In this document: piece by piece, positions 1-50,552 of the stretch | Layout: the number at the start of each line of letters is the position of its first letter | Numbering within the stretch: the stretch's first letter is position 1 | DNA from: Shigella phage SH6 | Length of the DNA stretch: 50,552 nucleotides | Sequence record: KX828710 | Direction: 5' to 3' (one strand) | Notes under the pieces: generated by a model | Seen by the model: only the letters and a program-made list of their open reading frames with translations | Told to the model about the DNA's origin: nothing | Databases searched by the model: none | Position numbers and translations under genes: made by a program

Positions 1-5
1 GACAA

Positions 6-581
6 ATGAAAACTCAGCTTAAAGAAGTAACGGAATTTGAACTCAATCTGCCGGACTACATTCGCAAGGCGATTGAGAAGCACCAATCAGGGAATCATTT
101 CGCAATCACCGGAAACCAGATGGTAGCAATCTACGTGCATGAGCAGGCCGAGATTGTAAAGGTCACTCAGAATGTTGAGCTAACCGAGGAACAGATTGAT
201 GATGCCATCGCTAACGAGTACATCTCGCGCTCAGCCTGGTTGCTTGAACGACTCACGGCGTCGTATGTGTCCAATATCATCAAGCGACACATGCTCAAGG
301 TTCACAATAAGGCCGTGTCGGTTCGAATCAATCGCGATCCAATTGAAGGTGTAATCATATCCATCACCGAACTTGAAGGAGAGGAAGCAGACAAGGTCAT
401 ATGCGAAGCAAAACAGGGCAAGAGAGGCCGGAAGCGCAAGAGCATAGCCGATGTGTTCAATGCGAAGGTTGAGGCGTTCAGAATCGATCTGAGAGAGTTT
501 GAAGGTAGCAATATCTCAGTATCGGATCTCAATAAACTGGTGGAGCAATTCCGCGCGCATTTACTGGATGAGGAGAAGTAA
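6..581 (+). CDS. hypothetical early protein (191 aa)
   Basis: ORF track; ATG at 6 with GAGG RBS at the window end (circular junction); no motif recognised. Confidence 0.55.
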   Translation: MKTQLKEVTEFELNLPDYIRKAIEKHQSGNHFAITGNQMVAIYVHEQAEIVKVTQNVELTEEQIDDAIANEYISRSAWLLERLTASYVSNIIKRHMLKVHNKAVSVRINRDPIEGVIISITELEGEEADKVICEAKQGKRGRKRKSIADVFNAKVEAFRIDLREFEGSNISVSDLNKLVEQFRAHLLDEEK

Positions 582-583
582 TT

Positions 584-823
584 ATGAGCAAGATTAAGCA
601 TGACGCCCTGAAAGGTATCTTGATGCGACTAAACCCAGGCGAAGCATTCCAGCTTAACCCCGAGACGTTTGGATTCAATGGTGATTATCGTACAACCTTC
701 GAATTTGTCCGGTATGTAAAGAAAGAGTTTGGATTCGAAGTTATTCACGCAGGTCTTATCAATGGCATTCAGACGTTCATCTTTAAGCCAAATGAGATTC
801 GCTGCTTCACGCTGATGAAATAG
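584..823 (+). CDS. hypothetical protein (79 aa)
   Basis: ORF track; starts 3 nt after previous stop; stop TAG is first triplet of cassette motif. Confidence 0.55.
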   Translation: MSKIKHDALKGILMRLNPGEAFQLNPETFGFNGDYRTTFEFVRYVKKEFGFEVIHAGLINGIQTFIFKPNEIRCFTLMK

Positions 824-863
824 CACTTTTTGTTAAAACCGGATCGGGATAACCTGGTATAGT
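821..863 (+). promoter_or_regulatory. intergenic cassette (palindrome + hairpin + TATAGT) upstream of 895..1089
   Basis: TAGCACTTTTTGTTAAAAC; TGgTATAGT 22 nt after TTGTTA inside hairpin GGGATAAC/GTTATCCC. Confidence 0.5.
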
Positions 864-894
864 TATCCCATCGACAACGAATGAGGAAACGAAG

Positions 895-1089
895 ATGGAA
901 ACGCAAATTGACGTAGTGGTTGTTCAGCGCGACTCAACTCATGAAAAGGGTCTATTCAAGAAAGGAACCGAAATTACAATCGATCTTGAGGATATGGTTG
1001 CGTATCACTCGGGTCTTACCTGGAACGTGGTGCGCGTTGGCAGCGACTACAAACTCAAAGGCTTTAACACTTACTTTGCGGAGGCTTAA
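895..1089 (+). CDS. hypothetical protein (64 aa)
   Basis: ORF track; preceded by cassette and GAGGAAACGAAG RBS. Confidence 0.55.
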   Translation: METQIDVVVVQRDSTHEKGLFKKGTEITIDLEDMVAYHSGLTWNVVRVGSDYKLKGFNTYFAEA

Positions 1090-1091
1090 TC

Positions 1092-1559
1092 ATGACGACC
1101 ATTACCGTATTTCTGGCTAAAGATGAATTGGACGGCGAAATGTCATTCTTCGCGTTCGAGCATAAAACAGGATCGCACTGGCACATGTACACTCATTACA
1201 CGGTCATCGCAATTGAGGCTTACGACGGCGATTTCACTAGCAAGCTGAGTAATTTTATTGAAGCCGTTAAGTCTAGCGAGGGCTGCGAGTGGAAAGAAGA
1301 TCATGAAGTTATGCGAATGTATGAGATGATCAATCCGGTTCGCCTTGAGTCTTTCGAGCTTGGTTCTGATGTGACCATTAAGGTGAGAAATGCGGGTGAG
1401 TTGTTGTCGGGGATGCGTGTGCTGACTGGTTACTCTGGCCGTAAAGTGTGGCGCACTGTATCTAAGATTCGCCAGCGATCGGCAACATGCTACAGCGTAT
1501 TCTTTGAAGATGGCTGGAATATGATGTCAGGAAGTGAAGTGAAGTATCTCACCAAATAG
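1092..1559 (+). CDS. hypothetical protein (155 aa)
   Basis: ORF track; ATGA overlap with upstream gene; ends at cassette motif. Confidence 0.55.
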   Translation: MTTITVFLAKDELDGEMSFFAFEHKTGSHWHMYTHYTVIAIEAYDGDFTSKLSNFIEAVKSSEGCEWKEDHEVMRMYEMINPVRLESFELGSDVTIKVRNAGELLSGMRVLTGYSGRKVWRTVSKIRQRSATCYSVFFEDGWNMMSGSEVKYLTK

Positions 1560-1599
1560 CACGAATTGTTAAAACAGGATCGGGGTATATTGCTATAGT
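1557..1599 (+). promoter_or_regulatory. intergenic cassette upstream of 1638..1868
   Basis: TAGCACGAATTGTTAAAAC; TGcTATAGT at +22; GGGG/CCCC hairpin. Confidence 0.5.
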
Positions 1600-1637
1600 T
1601 ACCCCATTGAAACGAGATACCAATCAGAGGATTCACC

Positions 1638-1868
1638 ATGTCAATCGTCAAGAACCAGCAAGCCATCGATTCAACCAATAACAACCGCTTTGCTATTTTT
1701 ATCACATCGATAGGTCGCCGCTTTGCAGTCAAAGCCGTACCGAGCGGATACAAAACATACATGGAAGATAACGGAAAGTGGGTATGGTGCGAAAACCTTG
1801 CAAACTTCCTGGTCTGGAACGCAGACCTCCAGGGCTTTGACGATATCAGCACTTTAATTGAGGAATAA
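1638..1868 (+). CDS. hypothetical protein (76 aa)
   Basis: ORF track; cassette plus CCAATCAGAGG RBS upstream. Confidence 0.55.
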   Translation: MSIVKNQQAIDSTNNNRFAIFITSIGRRFAVKAVPSGYKTYMEDNGKWVWCENLANFLVWNADLQGFDDISTLIEE

Positions 1869-1874
1869 ATAATC

Positions 1875-2102
1875 ATGCCACGTTACAGCAACCTAACTCA
1901 ACTAACCCGCGTCAACGGGCACATGATCCCGGCAAAATCCACTCACTACGCAATGGGCGCAAAACACGGAGTCTATTTCAAGTGGCGCGGTCAATGGAAC
2001 TTCACAGCTGTGAATAATTTCTACATGCGAGTTCCAGGTGATGACCCGCAATCTGTCGTAGAAAACTCAATCGGTGACAACAAGATCGAGGTACTAAAAT
2101 GA
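1875..2102 (+). CDS. hypothetical protein (75 aa)
   Basis: ORF track; RBS-like AGGAATAAATAATC upstream. Confidence 0.5.
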   Translation: MPRYSNLTQLTRVNGHMIPAKSTHYAMGAKHGVYFKWRGQWNFTAVNNFYMRVPGDDPQSVVENSIGDNKIEVLK

Positions 2103-2209
2103 ACTTTAATACAGTAGCGCTATGGTCTGCCGTCTGGTTCTTCTGCATGGGTCACGTCATGGTCGGCATCGTGGTAATGCTTCTCCTGTGTGCTGGGGCG
2201 TTCGAATGA
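2099..2209 (+). CDS. putative small hydrophobic membrane peptide (36 aa)
   Basis: Own translation MNFNTVALWSAVWFFCMGHVMVGIVVMLLLCAGAFE; ATGA overlap with upstream stop; below the ORF-track size cutoff. Confidence 0.25.
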   Translation: MNFNTVALWSAVWFFCMGHVMVGIVVMLLLCAGAFE

Positions 2210-2379
2210 TGCGCATTCTAATTTGCATGATGGCGGCAGTCGCCATAACTATCCTGGTTGTGTCCGTCTGTGGAGAGGTAAAAGAGCGATGCCATGAAAC
2301 CGGGAACCAGGTTACTACGTTCGTGATGGTCGGCAACGTATTGCTACCAATCACATCAAATGAAATCACTTGCGAATAG
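2206..2379 (+). CDS. putative small membrane protein (57 aa)
   Basis: Internal ATG of track ORF 2122..2379 (MMRILICMMAAVAITILVVSV...), one predicted TM helix; start uncertain. Confidence 0.35.
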   Translation: MMRILICMMAAVAITILVVSVCGEVKERCHETGNQVTTFVMVGNVLLPITSNEITCE

Positions 2380-2388
2380 GATTTAACA

Positions 2389-2580
2389 ATGGCTGATTTT
2401 ATGCACCAAATGATTGCAGTATTCAAAGGCAGCGATGACCATGAAGTAAAAGAGTGCTTTACTGTCAACAAGCCTTATAACGCATCGCTAACCAGCTTCG
2501 GGAATATCTCATTGCTTGATGATAACGGCGACCCCTGGGTATTCGACGAAGACACTGATTGCTTCGAAATTAAAGAATAG
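2389..2580 (+). CDS. hypothetical protein (63 aa)
   Basis: ORF track; ends at cassette motif TAG. Confidence 0.5.
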   Translation: MADFMHQMIAVFKGSDDHEVKECFTVNKPYNASLTSFGNISLLDDNGDPWVFDEDTDCFEIKE

Positions 2581-2620
2581 CACTTTTTGTTAAAACTCAA
2601 TTCCGGGGTTGCGATATAGT
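2578..2620 (+). promoter_or_regulatory. intergenic cassette upstream of 2652..3140
   Basis: TAGCACTTTTTGTTAAAAC; TATAGT at +22 inside GGGGTT/AACCCC hairpin. Confidence 0.5.
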
Positions 2621-2651
2621 AACCCCAACAACAACGAACGAGGACGATATA

Positions 2652-3140
2652 ATGAAAATCAAATTACTTTGCACTGGCGGTTACAAGGGATTTACCAGAG
2701 ATCTGGAAGCAGATCCTATCGTGGTTGACGCGGTGAAGTGTGATTCCAGTACTGGAGGATACCGTGTTAAGGTTGACGACCTGGTAAAAGCTGGCGTGTA
2801 CGATCTGGATTATGGACTTTCGGTTAGCTCGGTAGTCGGTCCGGCAGACTTCAACGAGAAGGACGGAACGATGTTCTTCTTCGAATGGGAAGTCCAGGCA
2901 AATCCTAAGCCGCGCAAGGTTCGACTTCTCAATAATGGCGGCTACCCGATGCGCTCGGGGTATGAGAACCGCACGTTCCCGGTTATCGTTGATTTTGAAG
3001 AAATCACCGCGCACTTAGCTTATATCAACGGTGAACATCTTAATGCTGTTGGATTCGTGGGAGGTATGAATCAAGAGGCGCTATGCTTCTTCCATTGTAA
3101 AGCCGAGCCGTTCGATATTGAGTGCGAGTTAGTCTACTAA
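2652..3140 (+). CDS. hypothetical protein (162 aa)
   Basis: ORF track; cassette upstream. Confidence 0.55.
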   Translation: MKIKLLCTGGYKGFTRDLEADPIVVDAVKCDSSTGGYRVKVDDLVKAGVYDLDYGLSVSSVVGPADFNEKDGTMFFFEWEVQANPKPRKVRLLNNGGYPMRSGYENRTFPVIVDFEEITAHLAYINGEHLNAVGFVGGMNQEALCFFHCKAEPFDIECELVY

Positions 3141-9615: not shown

Positions 9616-9654
9616 CGTTACGGGCGCGCGAGCGCCCACATGGGAGACTTAATC

Positions 9655-11223
9655 ATGATTCAATGGGAAGACCTTAACGCAACGCAGAAGTTAGCGATCA
9701 AGAAAATGAGCGAGGCCAATTTCGAAAAAATGATTCGGATCTGGTTCCAGCTTATGCAGGCGCAGCAGTTCCAGCCTAACTGGCATCACCTTTACCTATG
9801 TCACGAAGTGGAGGAAATAATTGCAGGCCGACGCGGTAACACTATCTTTAACGTCACGCCAGGTTCCGGTAAAACTGAAGTGTTCTCAATTCACCTTCCG
9901 GTGTACGCAATGCTTAAGTGTAAAAAGGTGCGAAACCTTAACGTGTCGTTTGCCGACAGCTTGGTTAAGCGTAACAGTAAGCGTGTCCGTGAGATTATCA
10001 GCAGCAACGAATTTCAAGAGTTATGGCCTTGCAAGTTCGGTACATCGAAAGACGAGGAGATGCAGGTTCTTAACGAAGACGGAAAGGTTTGGTTTGAGTT
10101 GATATCAGCTGCGGCTGGAGGTCGTATTACAGGTTCTCGTGGTGGCTACATGATGCCGGGATTCTCCGGGATGGTAATGCTCGACGATATCGACAAGCCT
10201 GATGATATGTTCTCAAAGGTTAAGCGTGAGCGTACGCACATGCTATTGAAAAACACCATCCGTTCCCGTCGTATGCATAACGAGACTCCTATTATTGCAA
10301 TTCAGCAACGACTACATGCTCAGGATTCAACCTGGTTCATGATGAATGGCGGGATGGGTATTGAGTTTGACCAAATCTCAATACCGGCGCTGGTGACGGA
10401 AGAATACGGAAAGACACTTCCTGATTGGTTGCAGCCTTACTTTGAGCGTGATGTTTTATCGTCTGAGTATGTAGAATTGGATGGCGTTAAGCATTACTCT
10501 TTTTGGCCCAGCAAGGAAAGCGTTCACGACCTGTTAGCTCTTCGAGAAGCGGACCAGTATACCTTTGACTCTCAGTATCAGCAGAAGCCGATCGCGCTTG
10601 GTGGCTCCGTGTTCAATTCGGAGTGGTGGACTTATTACGGCAGCAGCCTTGACGCTGATGAGCCGGATCCGGGTAAATATGATTACCGTTTTATCACCGC
10701 TGATACCGCTCAGAAGACAGGTGAGCTAAACGACTACACAGTCTTTTGTTTATGGGGTAAGAAAAACGATAAGGTTTACTTTATCGACGGTATTCGCGGA
10801 AAGTGGGAAGCGCCGGATATGGAGAAGCAATTTACCGCTTTCGTCAACCAGGCATGGAGGCACAATAAATCAATGGGGGTGCTTCGTAAAATATATGTGG
10901 AAGATAAGGCGAGTGGTACGGGCTTAATCCAGAATCTAAGGAAAAAGACTCCGATATCCATCACTCCATTGCAGCGTAACAAAGACAAAGTTACCCGAGC
11001 TATGGATGCCCAGCCAGTTATTAAAGCCGGGCGCGTGGTTCTGCCAGAAGAGCACCCCATGCTTGCGGAAATTATCGCGGAACATAGCGCGTTCACTTAC
11101 GATGACACGCATCCGCACGACGATATTGTCGATAACTTCATGGACGCTGCAAACATTGAACTACTGACAATTGACGATCCTATCGAGAGAATGAAGCGAC
11201 TCGCCGGGATGGTTAAGCGGTAA
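9655..11223 (+). CDS. terL: terminase large subunit
   Basis: ~520 aa, Walker A TPGSGKTEV, directly upstream of portal. Confidence 0.8.
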   Translation: MIQWEDLNATQKLAIKKMSEANFEKMIRIWFQLMQAQQFQPNWHHLYLCHEVEEIIAGRRGNTIFNVTPGSGKTEVFSIHLPVYAMLKCKKVRNLNVSFADSLVKRNSKRVREIISSNEFQELWPCKFGTSKDEEMQVLNEDGKVWFELISAAAGGRITGSRGGYMMPGFSGMVMLDDIDKPDDMFSKVKRERTHMLLKNTIRSRRMHNETPIIAIQQRLHAQDSTWFMMNGGMGIEFDQISIPALVTEEYGKTLPDWLQPYFERDVLSSEYVELDGVKHYSFWPSKESVHDLLALREADQYTFDSQYQQKPIALGGSVFNSEWWTYYGSSLDADEPDPGKYDYRFITADTAQKTGELNDYTVFCLWGKKNDKVYFIDGIRGKWEAPDMEKQFTAFVNQAWRHNKSMGVLRKIYVEDKASGTGLIQNLRKKTPISITPLQRNKDKVTRAMDAQPVIKAGRVVLPEEHPMLAEIIAEHSAFTYDDTHPHDDIVDNFMDAANIELLTIDDPIERMKRLAGMVKR

Positions 11224-15837: not shown

Positions 15838-16797
15838 ATGACTACTAAAAAATTTGATGAAGCAGATAAAAGCAATGTTGAAATGTATCTGATCCAGGCT
15901 GGCGTAAAACAGGATGCAGCCGCAACGATGGGTATCTGGACCGCTCAGGAACTACACCGCATCAAAAGCCAGTCCTATGAAGAAGATTACCCAGTCGGGT
16001 CCGCTCTACGCGTATTCCCTGTTACAACCGATCTTTCTCCGACTGATAAGACGTTTGAATACATGACCTTTGACAAGGTTGGTACGGCTCAGATTATCGC
16101 AGACTACACCGACGATCTTCCGCTGGTTGACGCCCTGGGTACTTCTGAGTTTGGCAAGGTGTTCCGTCTTGGTAACGCGTATCTGATCTCAATCGACGAA
16201 ATCAAAGCAGGTCAGGCAACTGGTCGCCCACTGTCAACCCGTAAGGCAAGTGCGTGCCAGTTGGCGCATGATCAGCTTGTTAACCGCCTGGTGTTCAAAG
16301 GTTCCGCGCCGCACAAGATTGTATCCGTGTTCAATCATCCGAACATCACCAAAATTACCTCCGGTAAGTGGATGGATGGCGCAACTCAGAAACCGGAAAC
16401 GGCTGAAGCGGAATTGACTCAGGCAATCGAAACCATCGAGACGATTACTCGCGGCCAGCACCGAGCTACCAACATTCTGATCCCGCCGTCCATGCGTAAG
16501 GTGCTGGCGATTCGTATGCCTGAGACTACCATGTCTTATCTGGACTATTTCAAGTCTCAGAACTCCGGTATCGAAATCGACTCTATCGCAGAACTTGAAG
16601 ATATCGACGGCGCTGGAACTAAAGGTGTGCTGGTGTACGAAAAGAATCCGATGAACATGTCCATCGAGATCCCGGAAGCATTCAACATGCTGCCAGCGCA
16701 GCCGAAAGACTTGCACTTCAAAGTGCCTTGCACTTCCAAGTGCACTGGACTTACAATTTATCGCCCGATGACTATTGTCTTAATCACTGGCGTGTAA
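15838..16797 (+). CDS. major capsid protein
   Basis: ~320 aa, position in head module, strong ACGGAGAAG RBS; own terminator downstream. Confidence 0.7.
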   Translation: MTTKKFDEADKSNVEMYLIQAGVKQDAAATMGIWTAQELHRIKSQSYEEDYPVGSALRVFPVTTDLSPTDKTFEYMTFDKVGTAQIIADYTDDLPLVDALGTSEFGKVFRLGNAYLISIDEIKAGQATGRPLSTRKASACQLAHDQLVNRLVFKGSAPHKIVSVFNHPNITKITSGKWMDGATQKPETAEAELTQAIETIETITRGQHRATNILIPPSMRKVLAIRMPETTMSYLDYFKSQNSGIEIDSIAELEDIDGAGTKGVLVYEKNPMNMSIEIPEAFNMLPAQPKDLHFKVPCTSKCTGLTIYRPMTIVLITGV

Positions 16798-43721: not shown

Positions 43722-43765
43722 AATATACCCGATACGAGATCGGGTGTTTTAACAAAAAGTGCTAT
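43722..43765 (-). promoter_or_regulatory. intergenic cassette (minus orientation) upstream of 43469..43684
   Basis: Minus strand ATAGCACTTTTTGTTAAAAC; TATATT at +22; CATCGAAACGA leader. Confidence 0.5.
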
Positions 43766-47983: not shown

Positions 47984-47987
47984 ATAA

Positions 47988-48218
47988 TTACCCTCTGAAA
48001 CTATCAATAGTGTCGTTGATGTATTTCACTTGCGCCTCTACGTCAGACGTGGCGATGTACTGGAATGTATCGTAATCCTCCCGCAAGTCCACAAGCTCGA
48101 CCTTAGTATGATGCTCTTTAAGCCCTCCCATGTGACCGTAATGTGTGCGGTAGACAATGAATCCCTCGTCATTGGCGCGCTGGATTGCTTTCTTTAATCC
48201 AGGGTGTTTGATTGCCAT
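47988..48218 (-). CDS. hypothetical protein (76 aa)
   Basis: ORF track; cassette and CAGGAG RBS upstream. Confidence 0.5.
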   Translation of the reverse strand: MAIKHPGLKKAIQRANDEGFIVYRTHYGHMGGLKEHHTKVELVDLREDYDTFQYIATSDVEAQVKYINDTIDSFRG

Positions 48219-48250
48219 ATGGTGATTCTCCTGATTGGTTGATGTTGTTT

Positions 48251-48296
48251 ACTATACCCCGATTCCCTTCGGGGCGTTTAGCAATTCGTGCTATTA
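48251..48296 (-). promoter_or_regulatory. intergenic cassette (minus) upstream of 47988..48218
   Basis: Minus strand TAGCACGAATTGCTAAAC; TATAGT at +22 in CCCCGAAGGG hairpin. Confidence 0.5.
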
Positions 48297-48629
48297 ATCG
48301 ATATCGAACTCAGCGGCATATGCTTTCTTGAAGCCAGCTTCACGCATGGTGCGCTTGCTGATTTTTCGCGGGAATTTGTAATGACTGTTAGGTTTAACCC
48401 ACCAGAAGCAGGCAGTCTCGCGAACAATTTCATATTTACCGTAACGGGTGAAGATGTCACGTTCATCGTCAGGCTGGTTAACACAGGTAAGGAATTTAGC
48501 TGCTTTGTCTTCAGTTTTGATTTCTTCCCATACGAAAGAATCCATACCGTTAACCTTGCAAGCTACCATGATGTACTCAACGCCGTTTTCGATTTTGATG
48601 ATTTCGTTACCGCGATTTTCGTATTTCAT
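48294..48629 (-). CDS. hypothetical protein (111 aa)
   Basis: Internal ATG of track ORF 48294..48701 with CAGGAG RBS; cassette upstream. Confidence 0.5.
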   Translation of the reverse strand: MKYENRGNEIIKIENGVEYIMVACKVNGMDSFVWEEIKTEDKAAKFLTCVNQPDDERDIFTRYGKYEIVRETACFWWVKPNSHYKFPRKISKRTMREAGFKKAYAAEFDID

Positions 48630-48667
48630 TTCCCTACTCCTGATGTGTATCTCGTTTCGATGAAGTA

Positions 48668-48711
48668 ATAATGCCAGATTCCATTCCGGCAGTTTTAACA
48701 AAAAGTGCTAT
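48668..48711 (-). promoter_or_regulatory. intergenic cassette (minus) upstream of 48294..48629
   Basis: ~60 nt near-identical to plus-strand cassette at 38974..39035. Confidence 0.5.
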
Positions 48712-48897
48712 TTAGAATTTTACTTCCTCAACAAGCTCAACCTTTTTGCACCCCAGGCGATAGGAGTCGCCGAACAACAATAACCCCATAAATTCATCTT
48801 TGGTTATTGACTCCTTACCAACTGTTCTAAGCTCTCCGTTGTGAACTACAGTATCGCCGATCTTGATTTCTGATTTATGCACTAATTTCGTTTTCAT
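48712..48897 (-). CDS. hypothetical protein (61 aa)
   Basis: ORF track; coupled to upstream gene. Confidence 0.45.
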   Translation of the reverse strand: MKTKLVHKSEIKIGDTVVHNGELRTVGKESITKDEFMGLLLFGDSYRLGCKKVELVEEVKF

Positions 48898-48912
48898 TTG
48901 CTAGCCCGTTAA

Positions 48913-49098
48913 TTAAAAGAATGCTACATAGTTTGCAATGCCTTTGGCGTCGTCGTTAGGCATTGCTTTGACAGCAAGGTCGTAACCCGCTTCTACCTTT
49001 TGCTTTGCTGATTCTTCGTTGTACCCACAAATAACCAGAATTTTAACTACGTTTTCTTTGTTCAGAACTTTAAGGTCTTTAGTGATGCGACGTGCCAT
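48913..49098 (-). CDS. hypothetical protein (61 aa)
   Basis: Internal ATG of track ORF 48913..49113; cassette upstream. Confidence 0.45.
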   Translation of the reverse strand: MARRITKDLKVLNKENVVKILVICGYNEESAKQKVEAGYDLAVKAMPNDDAKGIANYVAFF

Positions 49099-49131
49099 TT
49101 TGTTTTTCCTCAATCTCGTTTCGATGAGGTA

Positions 49132-49175
49132 ATTATGCCAAATCGCACCGATCTGGTTTTAACAAAAAGTGCTAT
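49132..49175 (-). promoter_or_regulatory. intergenic cassette (minus) upstream of 48913..49098
   Basis: Minus strand ATAGCACTTTTTGTTAAAAC; CATAAT at +22; CATCGAAACGAGA leader. Confidence 0.5.
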
Positions 49176-49863
49176 TTGCGATCGCTTTGAAAAATCCACG
49201 CGGCGACAGGGATCGTATCAGCTTCGTTTTGGCAGACTTGCCGCCTAACTTGCTGTGCTGCGCAGAGTACCCGTCAGGCAGGTTTACAGGTTTTCTTTCC
49301 GGCATAACGAAGTCGTCAGAGGTCCACAGACAAGTTTTCTTAGGGTAAGCATCGCGCGGCGCAATATACATCGGGAACCAGGGATGAGCGTCATTCTCCG
49401 GAAGATAGCCGCCATACTCCCAGGGATTGAAGGAGTGATTTGGTTTTCTCCATGCAGACGACAGGACGCTCACCGGATTCTCAATGATGTAAGTCACGCC
49501 CAGTGCGTCGCCAATGTTCGCAGCAATCCTTGCGGTGGCAACAGCCTTCTCCTGGAATAACGGATCGCGCTCACGCTTACTTGCAAAGTGACTAGCACCA
49601 CTAACAGCCAGGTCAGTGCATGGAGGAAAGGCCATGATGAAATCCGGCTTGCCATACACACCAGCGATAGCATCACGTTCGAACTTCTCATCAATGAAGA
49701 CGTTCACATACTCAATGTTCGGATGCTCTACCCTGGCGTTATACTTCGCATAATCTCCGTGATCGGCTCCGTCAAAGTTGAAGCACATCACCTTATGACC
49801 TTGCCTTGCCAGTTCATGACCAGCAAGACCGGAACCGTCGAATAGCGACCAAATTAATTTCAT
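49159..49863 (-). CDS. compact DNA (cytosine-5)-methyltransferase-like protein
   Basis: Motif I LFDGSG, motif IV FPPCTD, motif VI IIENPV in canonical order; only 234 aa. Confidence 0.5.
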   Translation of the reverse strand: MKLIWSLFDGSGLAGHELARQGHKVMCFNFDGADHGDYAKYNARVEHPNIEYVNVFIDEKFERDAIAGVYGKPDFIMAFPPCTDLAVSGASHFASKRERDPLFQEKAVATARIAANIGDALGVTYIIENPVSVLSSAWRKPNHSFNPWEYGGYLPENDAHPWFPMYIAPRDAYPKKTCLWTSDDFVMPERKPVNLPDGYSAQHSKLGGKSAKTKLIRSLSPRGFFKAIANSTFC

Positions 49864-49897
49864 CGTGACTCCCTCTTCTGATTGGTTTATGGCCCGA

Positions 49898-49941
49898 ACT
49901 ATACCCTGACAACTTGGTCAAGTCGTTAGCAAAAAATGCTA
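49898..49941 (-). promoter_or_regulatory. intergenic cassette (minus) upstream of C5-MTase-like gene
   Basis: Minus strand TAGCATTTTTTGCTAACGAC (perfect palindrome); TATAGT ~23 nt downstream. Confidence 0.5.
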
Positions 49942-50192
49942 TTCCAATAATTGCTCATTATTCCATCAATAATGGAATAGGTGGAATAATTTTGATTGCG
50001 ATTGATTGCAAATGATGAAACGTGATTATTGCATGATGTGCAACGGTTGGTTGATTTGTTGCTGAGAATGCAATGATTGCGAGAGGGGGGATCTAGTGTT
50101 ACCCGGTTCGCCTGGTGGTCATCTCCATTCTTAGCAAAACGTGCTATTCGTCTATGCGGTAGTTGTAATTGTCGTAATAGTTGTATACCATC

Positions 50193-50300
50193 AGGGGTGT
50201 TACAAAATGGCCCGAGAATCGATAGGCCTATAGATAATAAAATATCTATATATAATAATAAGATAGATAATATATATTTATTTATTTATTATATTATATA
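50193..50300. repeat. AT-rich repeat element copy B (GGGTGTTACAAAAT ... AGATAGATAATAT)
   Basis: Direct repeat of copy A; lies in divergent region between leftward block and early region. Confidence 0.6.
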
Positions 50301-50552
50301 TTGGCATGTAATCGGCGTAATAGGTGCAACCGCATTTTTGGAGGGTGGCATATATTTCAGGGTGCATAGTATAGAAAACATACTATTCCGCGCGCAAAAA
50401 TAGATGTGCGTACTTTTTTAGAAAAAGTCGGTTGCATCGGTTGCACTGGTTACAAAAATAAAAAATGCAGCTATAGACATTGACAGCTCTAGCCTGGTAG
50501 CTGTAACATGTTTTTCGAGGTGGCAAGTTACGCCCATAGACAACGAGGTATA

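Follow-up and report, generated by a model that had tools for sequence, protein, structure and literature searches.

The database record of Shigella phage SH6 (KX828710) is written as a line, and both of its ends fall close to the start of the same gene, which raises the question of what these ends are. The stretch of DNA analysed here, its full 50,552 nt referred to as the window, begins with GACAAATG, in which the ATG of the first gene occupies positions 6-8, and ends in ACAACGAGGTATA, with CGAGGTATA at 50544-50552. A preliminary description of this sequence had taken the window for a whole genome opened at an arbitrary point. The ends might be those of the virion DNA, the edges of an incomplete assembly, the start of packaging or a cut made on paper, and the evidence taken as a whole makes us highly confident of the last of these, that is, of a unit-length genome of a T1-like headful phage, linearised by its depositors just before ORF1.

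That the window is the SH6 record as published (KX828710), with unchanged coordinates, follows from its matching length, GC content, ORF sizes and tabulated ORF positions. It comprises 50,552 bp at 45.83% GC and contains ORFs of 1149 aa and 559 aa; the SH6 paper (Hamdi et al. 2017, Sci Rep 7:40349, PMC5238451) gives 50,552 bp and 45.8% GC and describes a 1149-aa tail fibre and an unusual second fibre of 559 aa. ORF1 (6..581, 191 aa), ORF2 (584..823) and TerL (9640..11223) are the same in the window and in Table S1 of that paper, and in the comparison with this table no difference in length, GC content or any ORF coordinate was detected. The genome had been assembled with Ray from a Nextera/MiSeq library as a single contig, and terminus mapping was not reported (PMC5238451). 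Genome-wide similarity and collinearity with T1, the type member of Tunavirus, place this siphovirus in the same genus: the best matches in the phage collection were all T1-like (Tunavirus, Drexlerviridae) at ~85-95% identity, and T1 is collinear with SH6 over 84% of the window in the same orientation (83-96% identity), from window position 1555 (T1 1449) through 47984 (T1 48675). T1 is without ~2 kb of SH6 (window 47985-50027), including the second methyltransferase gene, and ORF78-82 are missing from T1 according to the SH6 paper (PMC5238451). PHROG matches were obtained for the packaging, head and tail functions (TerS, TerL, portal, head protease, major head and tail proteins, tape measure, central fibre J and side fibre) and for primase, helicase, RecE-like exonuclease, Erf, two DNA methyltransferases, holin, endolysin and spanin. 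This spread of functions and the collinearity with T1 bear out the earlier view that the gene content for packaging, morphogenesis, replication and lysis is complete. In the whole window, ARAGORN found no tRNA genes, and no Rfam family reached the gathering threshold.

We then asked how the two ends of the record relate to each other. No exact overlap of 8-400 nt exists between the end and the start of the record, and a blastn comparison of the first with the last 6 kb returned inverted matches only, which correspond to a 21-nt repeat dispersed among the intergenic regions; as had been stated before, there is no direct repeat common to both ends. When the ends are joined, the last 20 bases (50533..50552, plus strand) and the first 20 (1..20, plus strand, of which bases 1-5 complete the 5′ UTR of gene 1) form an artificial junction, CCCATAGACAACGAGGTATA followed by GACAAATGAAAACTCAGCTT, whose two halves are contiguous in nature. 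This 40-mer occurs exactly in two independent metagenome contigs (L010 and L011) and differs by a single substitution in four relatives from GenBank, the phages Chapo, DELF2, phiL and AV106. A synthetic junction made of the last 1200 and the first 1200 bases aligned to DELF2 in a single HSP of 2424 nt at 88.7% identity, and a junction query of 1153 nt was covered to 97-100% in all four relatives. The records of DELF2, AV106 and phiL are opened elsewhere, so that the junction lies at 16541/16542, 40069/40070 and 2188/2189, respectively, and the Chapo record starts at the start of T1, with the SH6 junction internal. Seven independent ENA/Logan contigs, reached through gene-1 homologues from a large protein collection, all cross the junction in one alignment (90-96.6% identity), two of them deep in the interior of contigs of 48-50 kb. 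In independent contigs the gene for the 234-aa methyltransferase is found upstream of the gene-1 homologue and in opposite orientation, just as it is once the ends of the window are joined. None of the alignments with relatives and contigs has an indel at the junction point, and the exact 40-mer in two contigs means that no base is missing or duplicated between the ends of the record, which thus represents a circle of exactly unit length, opened at a single point. The ORFs running across the joined ends are chance ORFs only, of 17 aa and 36 aa.

A circle of this kind is what the packaging machinery leads one to expect. TerL is identical to its T1 counterpart at 525 of 527 positions and TerS at 173 of 174, so the terminase is of the type of an experimentally characterised headful packager, and the record closes into a circle with adjacent ends, as seen in the 40-mer, the seven contigs and the four genomes. 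In T1 and its relatives, packaging begins at a pac site and continues headful by headful, which yields three or four classes of virion DNA that are partially circularly permuted and differ in terminal redundancy (German et al. 2024, PMC11447400); for T1-like phages, PMC5238451, PMC7718038 and PMC13164509 likewise describe headful packaging from a pac site and virion DNA with terminal redundancy and partial permutation. From the near-identical machinery we infer that SH6 itself packages by a pac-initiated headful mechanism. The genome would then replicate as a concatemer, the terminase would start at the pac site and go on to cut by headful, and the virion DNAs would be terminally redundant and partly circularly permuted; shotgun reads from such DNA assemble into a circle. 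The depositors would have written this circle as a line starting 5 nt before ORF1, and the cut would thus have fallen into the 5′ UTR of gene 1, between Shine-Dalgarno sequence and ATG, leaving the promoter at the opposite end of the record. The practice in related records is similar. Authors of related genomes state that these have no fixed ends and that records are oriented by T1 (PMC13164509), related "complete" records begin at dozens of different positions and on either strand, and a conserved block near the junction appears at scattered coordinates and on both strands in ~60 of them. The records of phiL, ADB-2 and pSf-2 are flagged as circular.

Where packaging would begin can be judged from this conserved block, a non-coding segment at 49992..50147 that is ~90% conserved in ~60 T1-like records and has variable flanks on both sides. 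T1 nt 2-120 align to window 50029-50147 with 90.8% identity, which puts T1 nt 1 at window ~50028, ~525 bp to the left of the cut. The block contains the palindrome ATTGCATGATGTGCAAC at 50028-50044, at the equivalent of T1 nt 1, and T1 has its counterpart GTTGCATGGTGTGCAAC where its own nucleotide 1 falls. The T1 RefSeq record (NC_005833) annotates a repeat_region at 1..2800, and this annotation and secondary literature are the basis for regarding T1 nt 1 as the pac cut. The records of T1, JMPW1, JMPW2, phi2457T, FCWL1 and Chapo all start at the equivalent of window ~50028, and those of Shfl1, SH2, IME167 and Henu5_2 end or start at the equivalents of ~50080-50115. The record ends of the relatives are thus seen to cluster at the equivalents of 50028, ~50080, 50095 and 50115, a clustering that would fit imprecise cuts of a pac series or the copying of T1's convention. 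Our search of the literature returned no relevant published terminus data for IME167, Henu5_2, SH2 and Shfl1, whose records end inside the block, and nothing on T1-like termini in the BASEL paper. Judged from the sequence comparisons, packaging series are probably initiated at a pac site within 49992-50147, ~525 bp left of the cut. With T1-type packaging and T1 nt 1 at ~50028, the cut of the window has no physical meaning. A random cut would fall within 10 nt of the ORF1 ATG with a chance of only ~2 in 10,000, so that the opening was most likely picked by the annotators to begin with the first gene in T1 order and is physically arbitrary, not random. The earlier reading of the window as a genome opened at an arbitrary point accordingly stands as regards the whole genome, the adjacent ends and a physically arbitrary cut, and it needs correction where it implied a random opening, which a position 5 nt before ORF1 makes improbable.

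That the boundaries of the window are real ends of the virion DNA, whether cohesive, blunt and unique, or left by the collapse of exact direct terminal repeats, seems to us extremely improbable. The record is indeed written as a linear molecule, and a direct terminal repeat would be reduced to one copy by the assembler, so that the lack of such a repeat does not by itself speak against this last case; against all three, the cut separates a conserved Shine-Dalgarno sequence from its start codon, the junction is internal, uninterrupted DNA in the four relatives and the seven independent contigs, and the annotated left end of T1 maps 525 bp away. Furthermore, the terminase shares ~99% identity with its counterpart in the headful packager T1, and in published work no cohesive ends were seen when the T1-like phages Sfin-1 and SU57 were examined by restriction analysis (including PMC7718038). 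SH6 does not show the features expected of a phage whose ends are unique, be they cos sites or exact direct terminal repeats: it has neither repeat nor overlap at the ends, a cut between ribosome-binding site and ATG, and a junction that is internal in relatives. We give just as little credence to an incomplete assembly in which sequence is missing between the end and the start of the record: without an end overlap, closure cannot be proven from the sequence of the record alone, but the exact 40-mer spans the joined ends in two independent contigs with no inserted bases, the alignments over the junction show no indel at the joined point, and the genes form a complete set that is collinear with T1. 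Slightly less remote, and still very improbable, is that the opening point is the packaging start and base 1 the left end of the first headful. The orientation is T1-like and the start lies in the same intergenic region as the start of T1's numbering, which would agree with such an origin; T1 nt 1, however, corresponds to window ~50028 and not to 1, records that appear to follow T1's start or mark termini are clustered in the range 50028-50115, the position used in the window is not the end of any record, and the SH6 paper contains no terminus determination (PMC5238451). A circle linearised by its depositors remains our explanation for the record, and the elements on either side of the cut can be read as one region.

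Once the ends are joined, the intergenic region measures 694 bp (49864-50552 plus 1-5) and separates a leftward methyltransferase gene from the rightward gene 1. The window does end inside the 5′ control region of its first gene, the cut running between the Shine-Dalgarno core GAGG (50545..50548, plus strand) and the ATG at 6-8. In the joined sequence, GAGG stands 9 nt before this ATG, and the ribosome-binding site assigned to it previously, at 50544-50552, was exact in its coordinates. The surrounding stretch ACGAGGTATAG is kept in five of five close relatives, and AAGGAG occupies the corresponding position in T1. Table S1 of the SH6 paper gives "GACAA" as the Shine-Dalgarno sequence of ORF1 (PMC5238451), a listing explained by the fact that only five upstream bases are present in the file at this point, the conserved GAGG having been cut off to the other end.

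The candidate promoter TTGACA-N18-TAACAT, proposed earlier at 50480-50509, was found at precisely these coordinates and is also reported by a promoter scanner. Its -35 element TTGACA (50480..50485, plus strand) reads TTGAC[A/G] in five close relatives, and its -10 element TAACAT (50504..50509, plus strand), 18 nt further on, is invariant in them. The hexamers are thus of the sigma-70 type with a spacing in the range of 16-18 nt. From the position of the promoter, transcription would start at ~50516-50518, and the 5′ UTR of gene 1 is predicted to span 50517..50552 plus bases 1-5 (plus strand, ~41 nt). The score of the site, 10 of 12, does not distinguish it from chance: three sites were found in a region of 753 bp against 3.3 expected, and sites of at least 10/12 number seven genome-wide compared with 11.7 ± 3.4 in random sequences, if anything fewer. 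Support for the promoter comes from its position and conservation instead of its score. Hexamers, spacing and position are all conserved, and the spacer (50486-50503) keeps its length among the five relatives while about half of its 18 positions vary. The promoter lies 448-453 nt from the equivalent of T1 nt 1 in the window, T1 and ADB-2, which represent two cassette types; the T1/ADB-2 region is otherwise unalignable, yet it carries TTGAC[AG]-N16-18-(T)AACA[CT] at the same distance. A similar site, TTGACA-N17-CACAAT, was read by eye in pSf-2, and in the window, T1, ADB-2 and pSf-2 alike the promoter site is followed by a ribosome-binding site and the first gene. Unlike ~26 other transcription units in the genome, gene 1 has a promoter that lacks the 21-nt repeat and possesses a full TTGACA, which fits an immediate-early promoter that would be read by the unmodified host polymerase.

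On these sequence comparisons TTGACA-N18-TAACAT is quite likely to function as a promoter. The alternative, that it does not work as one and that gene 1 is transcribed from sites in the A/T tract or from a phage-specific element, we consider unlikely. It could draw on a consensus score within chance expectation, on the sub-optimal 18-nt spacer and TAACAT -10 element, and on two further promoter-like sites at 50231-50259 and 50264-50292, but it would leave unexplained why hexamers and spacer length are kept while the spacer sequence varies and why a TTGAC[AG]...(T)AACA[CT] or CACAAT site is present in the T1/ADB-2- and pSf-2-type regions (the comparison of offsets being taken from T1/ADB-2 only). 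A terminator-like hairpin between the A/T tract and TTGACA-N18-TAACAT also argues against transcription of gene 1 from the tract. Beside these findings, we observed that the spacer is far more variable than the surrounding DNA, which is 90-94% identical. An inverted repeat within it (ACAGCT...AGCTGT) was considered as a functional hairpin and rejected as a chance occurrence, since it is absent from DELF2, AV106 and Chapo.

Several further elements lie between the methyltransferase gene and the candidate promoter. A copy of the 21-nt T1-family repeat precedes the methyltransferase gene (~49923-49942, minus strand), and a second T1-like copy, AATAGCACGTTTTGCTAAGAA, is situated at 50130..50150 (minus strand), pointing leftward. 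An A/T-only, (TA)n-rich tract at 50220..50301 is kept in close relatives and has an equivalent in T1, ADB-2 and pSf-2. It is followed by the terminator-like hairpin with a T run (50390..50421, plus strand; one found, 0.4 expected), upstream of the gene-1 promoter, and by three tandem 9-bp units, GGTTGCATC, GGTTGCACT and GGTTACAAA (50429..50455, plus strand), ~25 nt upstream of the -35 element. Tandem Repeats Finder reported these units with a period of 9 and 2.6 copies, and T1 and ADB-2 have three copies of CGATTAACA in their place. Three of the five genome-wide GGTTGCAY sites fall within 50324-50446; the motif is not enriched in the genome as a whole (five sites, 3.35 expected) and shows local clustering only. 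In the variants of this region found in other phages, we noticed that short tandem repeats recur, as three 9-mers in T1/ADB-2 and less clearly in pSf-2. A TTG-initiated ORF of 108 codons also runs through the A/T-rich tract (50077-50403, plus strand), and in the phiL record the corresponding region carries an annotated CDS of 119 aa; the ORF is probably a spurious gene call.

T1 resembles SH6 in having the conserved block, the (TA)n tract, three 9-bp repeats, a TTGACA promoter, a ribosome-binding site and a first gene of 191 aa, and it differs in that gene 1 and most of its upstream region form a diverged cassette, with 28% identity at the protein level. DELF2, phiL, AV106 and Chapo (Tunavirus) have the same gene-1 cassette and control region as SH6, at 88-94% identity. 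Gene 1 itself (SH6 ORF1, 6..581, plus strand, 191 aa) is a homologue of T1 gp77 (ST77) by position and distant sequence similarity: the two proteins have the same length and share 28% identity over 118 aa (E 2e-12). It matched phrog_11083, a family without assigned function, and no Pfam family at threshold, with DUF7174 and others appearing below threshold only. The start codon is ATG in SH6, phiL and two metagenome contigs and GTG in Chapo, DELF2 and AV106. On the other side of the intergenic region, the gene of the 234-aa DNA methyltransferase (49159..49863, minus strand) matched phrog_757 (E 1.7e-84) and no Pfam family at E ≤ 0.1. As a separate observation, gene 1 and the right-hand portion of the DNA upstream of it (50148-50552 plus 1-586) appear as a mosaic-like cassette, shared with the four GenBank phages only and with some uncultured relatives; T1/ADB-2 and pSf-2 carry versions that cannot be aligned with it but are broadly similar in layout, with a first gene of 154-191 aa.

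One reading of this layout would be that the 694-bp region is a composite cis-acting hub combining a pac region (the block with the palindrome, 49992-50147), a possible replication origin in the (TA)n tract with its flanking short repeats, and an immediate-early promoter, and that its right half is swapped among T1-like phages together with gene 1 as a cassette. The reading draws on architectural conservation and linkage only, and we think it rather improbable as a whole. If it were true, the 9-bp repeats (GGTTGCAYY in SH6, CGATTAACA in T1) would be binding sites for the cassette's own gene-1 protein.

The dispersed 21-nt repeat, met twice in this region, deserves a description of its own. It follows the pattern ATAGCAC-N3-TTGnTAAA and was seen at ~26 intergenic sites, always oriented with transcription, for example on the plus strand at 820, 1556, 2577, 3138, 3864, 5411, 5931, 7226, 36464, 38973, 39996 and 41984, and on the minus strand at 43765, 45927, 46427, 46943, 48294, 48711, 49175, 49942 and 50147. 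At ~10 of the intergenic copies a -10-like hexamer (TATAGT, TATAAT or TATATT) occurs at or near +38, and a start codon usually follows at +71 to +87. The gap from TTGnTA to the -10 element is 22 nt, too long for a standard sigma-70 promoter. Many copies, as judged by eye, also have their own G+C-rich inverted repeat, either between the repeat and the -10 element or around the latter, whose sequence differs from copy to copy while complementarity is kept; the T1 record annotates some of the hairpins beside the 21-nt repeats as terminators. The repeat family has been described before, and its function was listed as an open question (German et al. 2024, PMC11447400).

The window is the complete published genome of SH6, and writing it as a line is a routine database convention for such phages. 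The whole finding agrees with what is established for T1-like phages and with common database practice; it holds no new biology, and its practical value is mostly curatorial. The opening points of T1-like records are not comparable with one another, T1's convention lying 525 bp further to the left than that of SH6, and records should therefore be re-oriented before comparative or terminus analyses. Records of headful phages should be annotated as circular, as otherwise the first gene is cut off from its promoter and ribosome-binding site, and ORFs or motifs spanning the junction go unnoticed.
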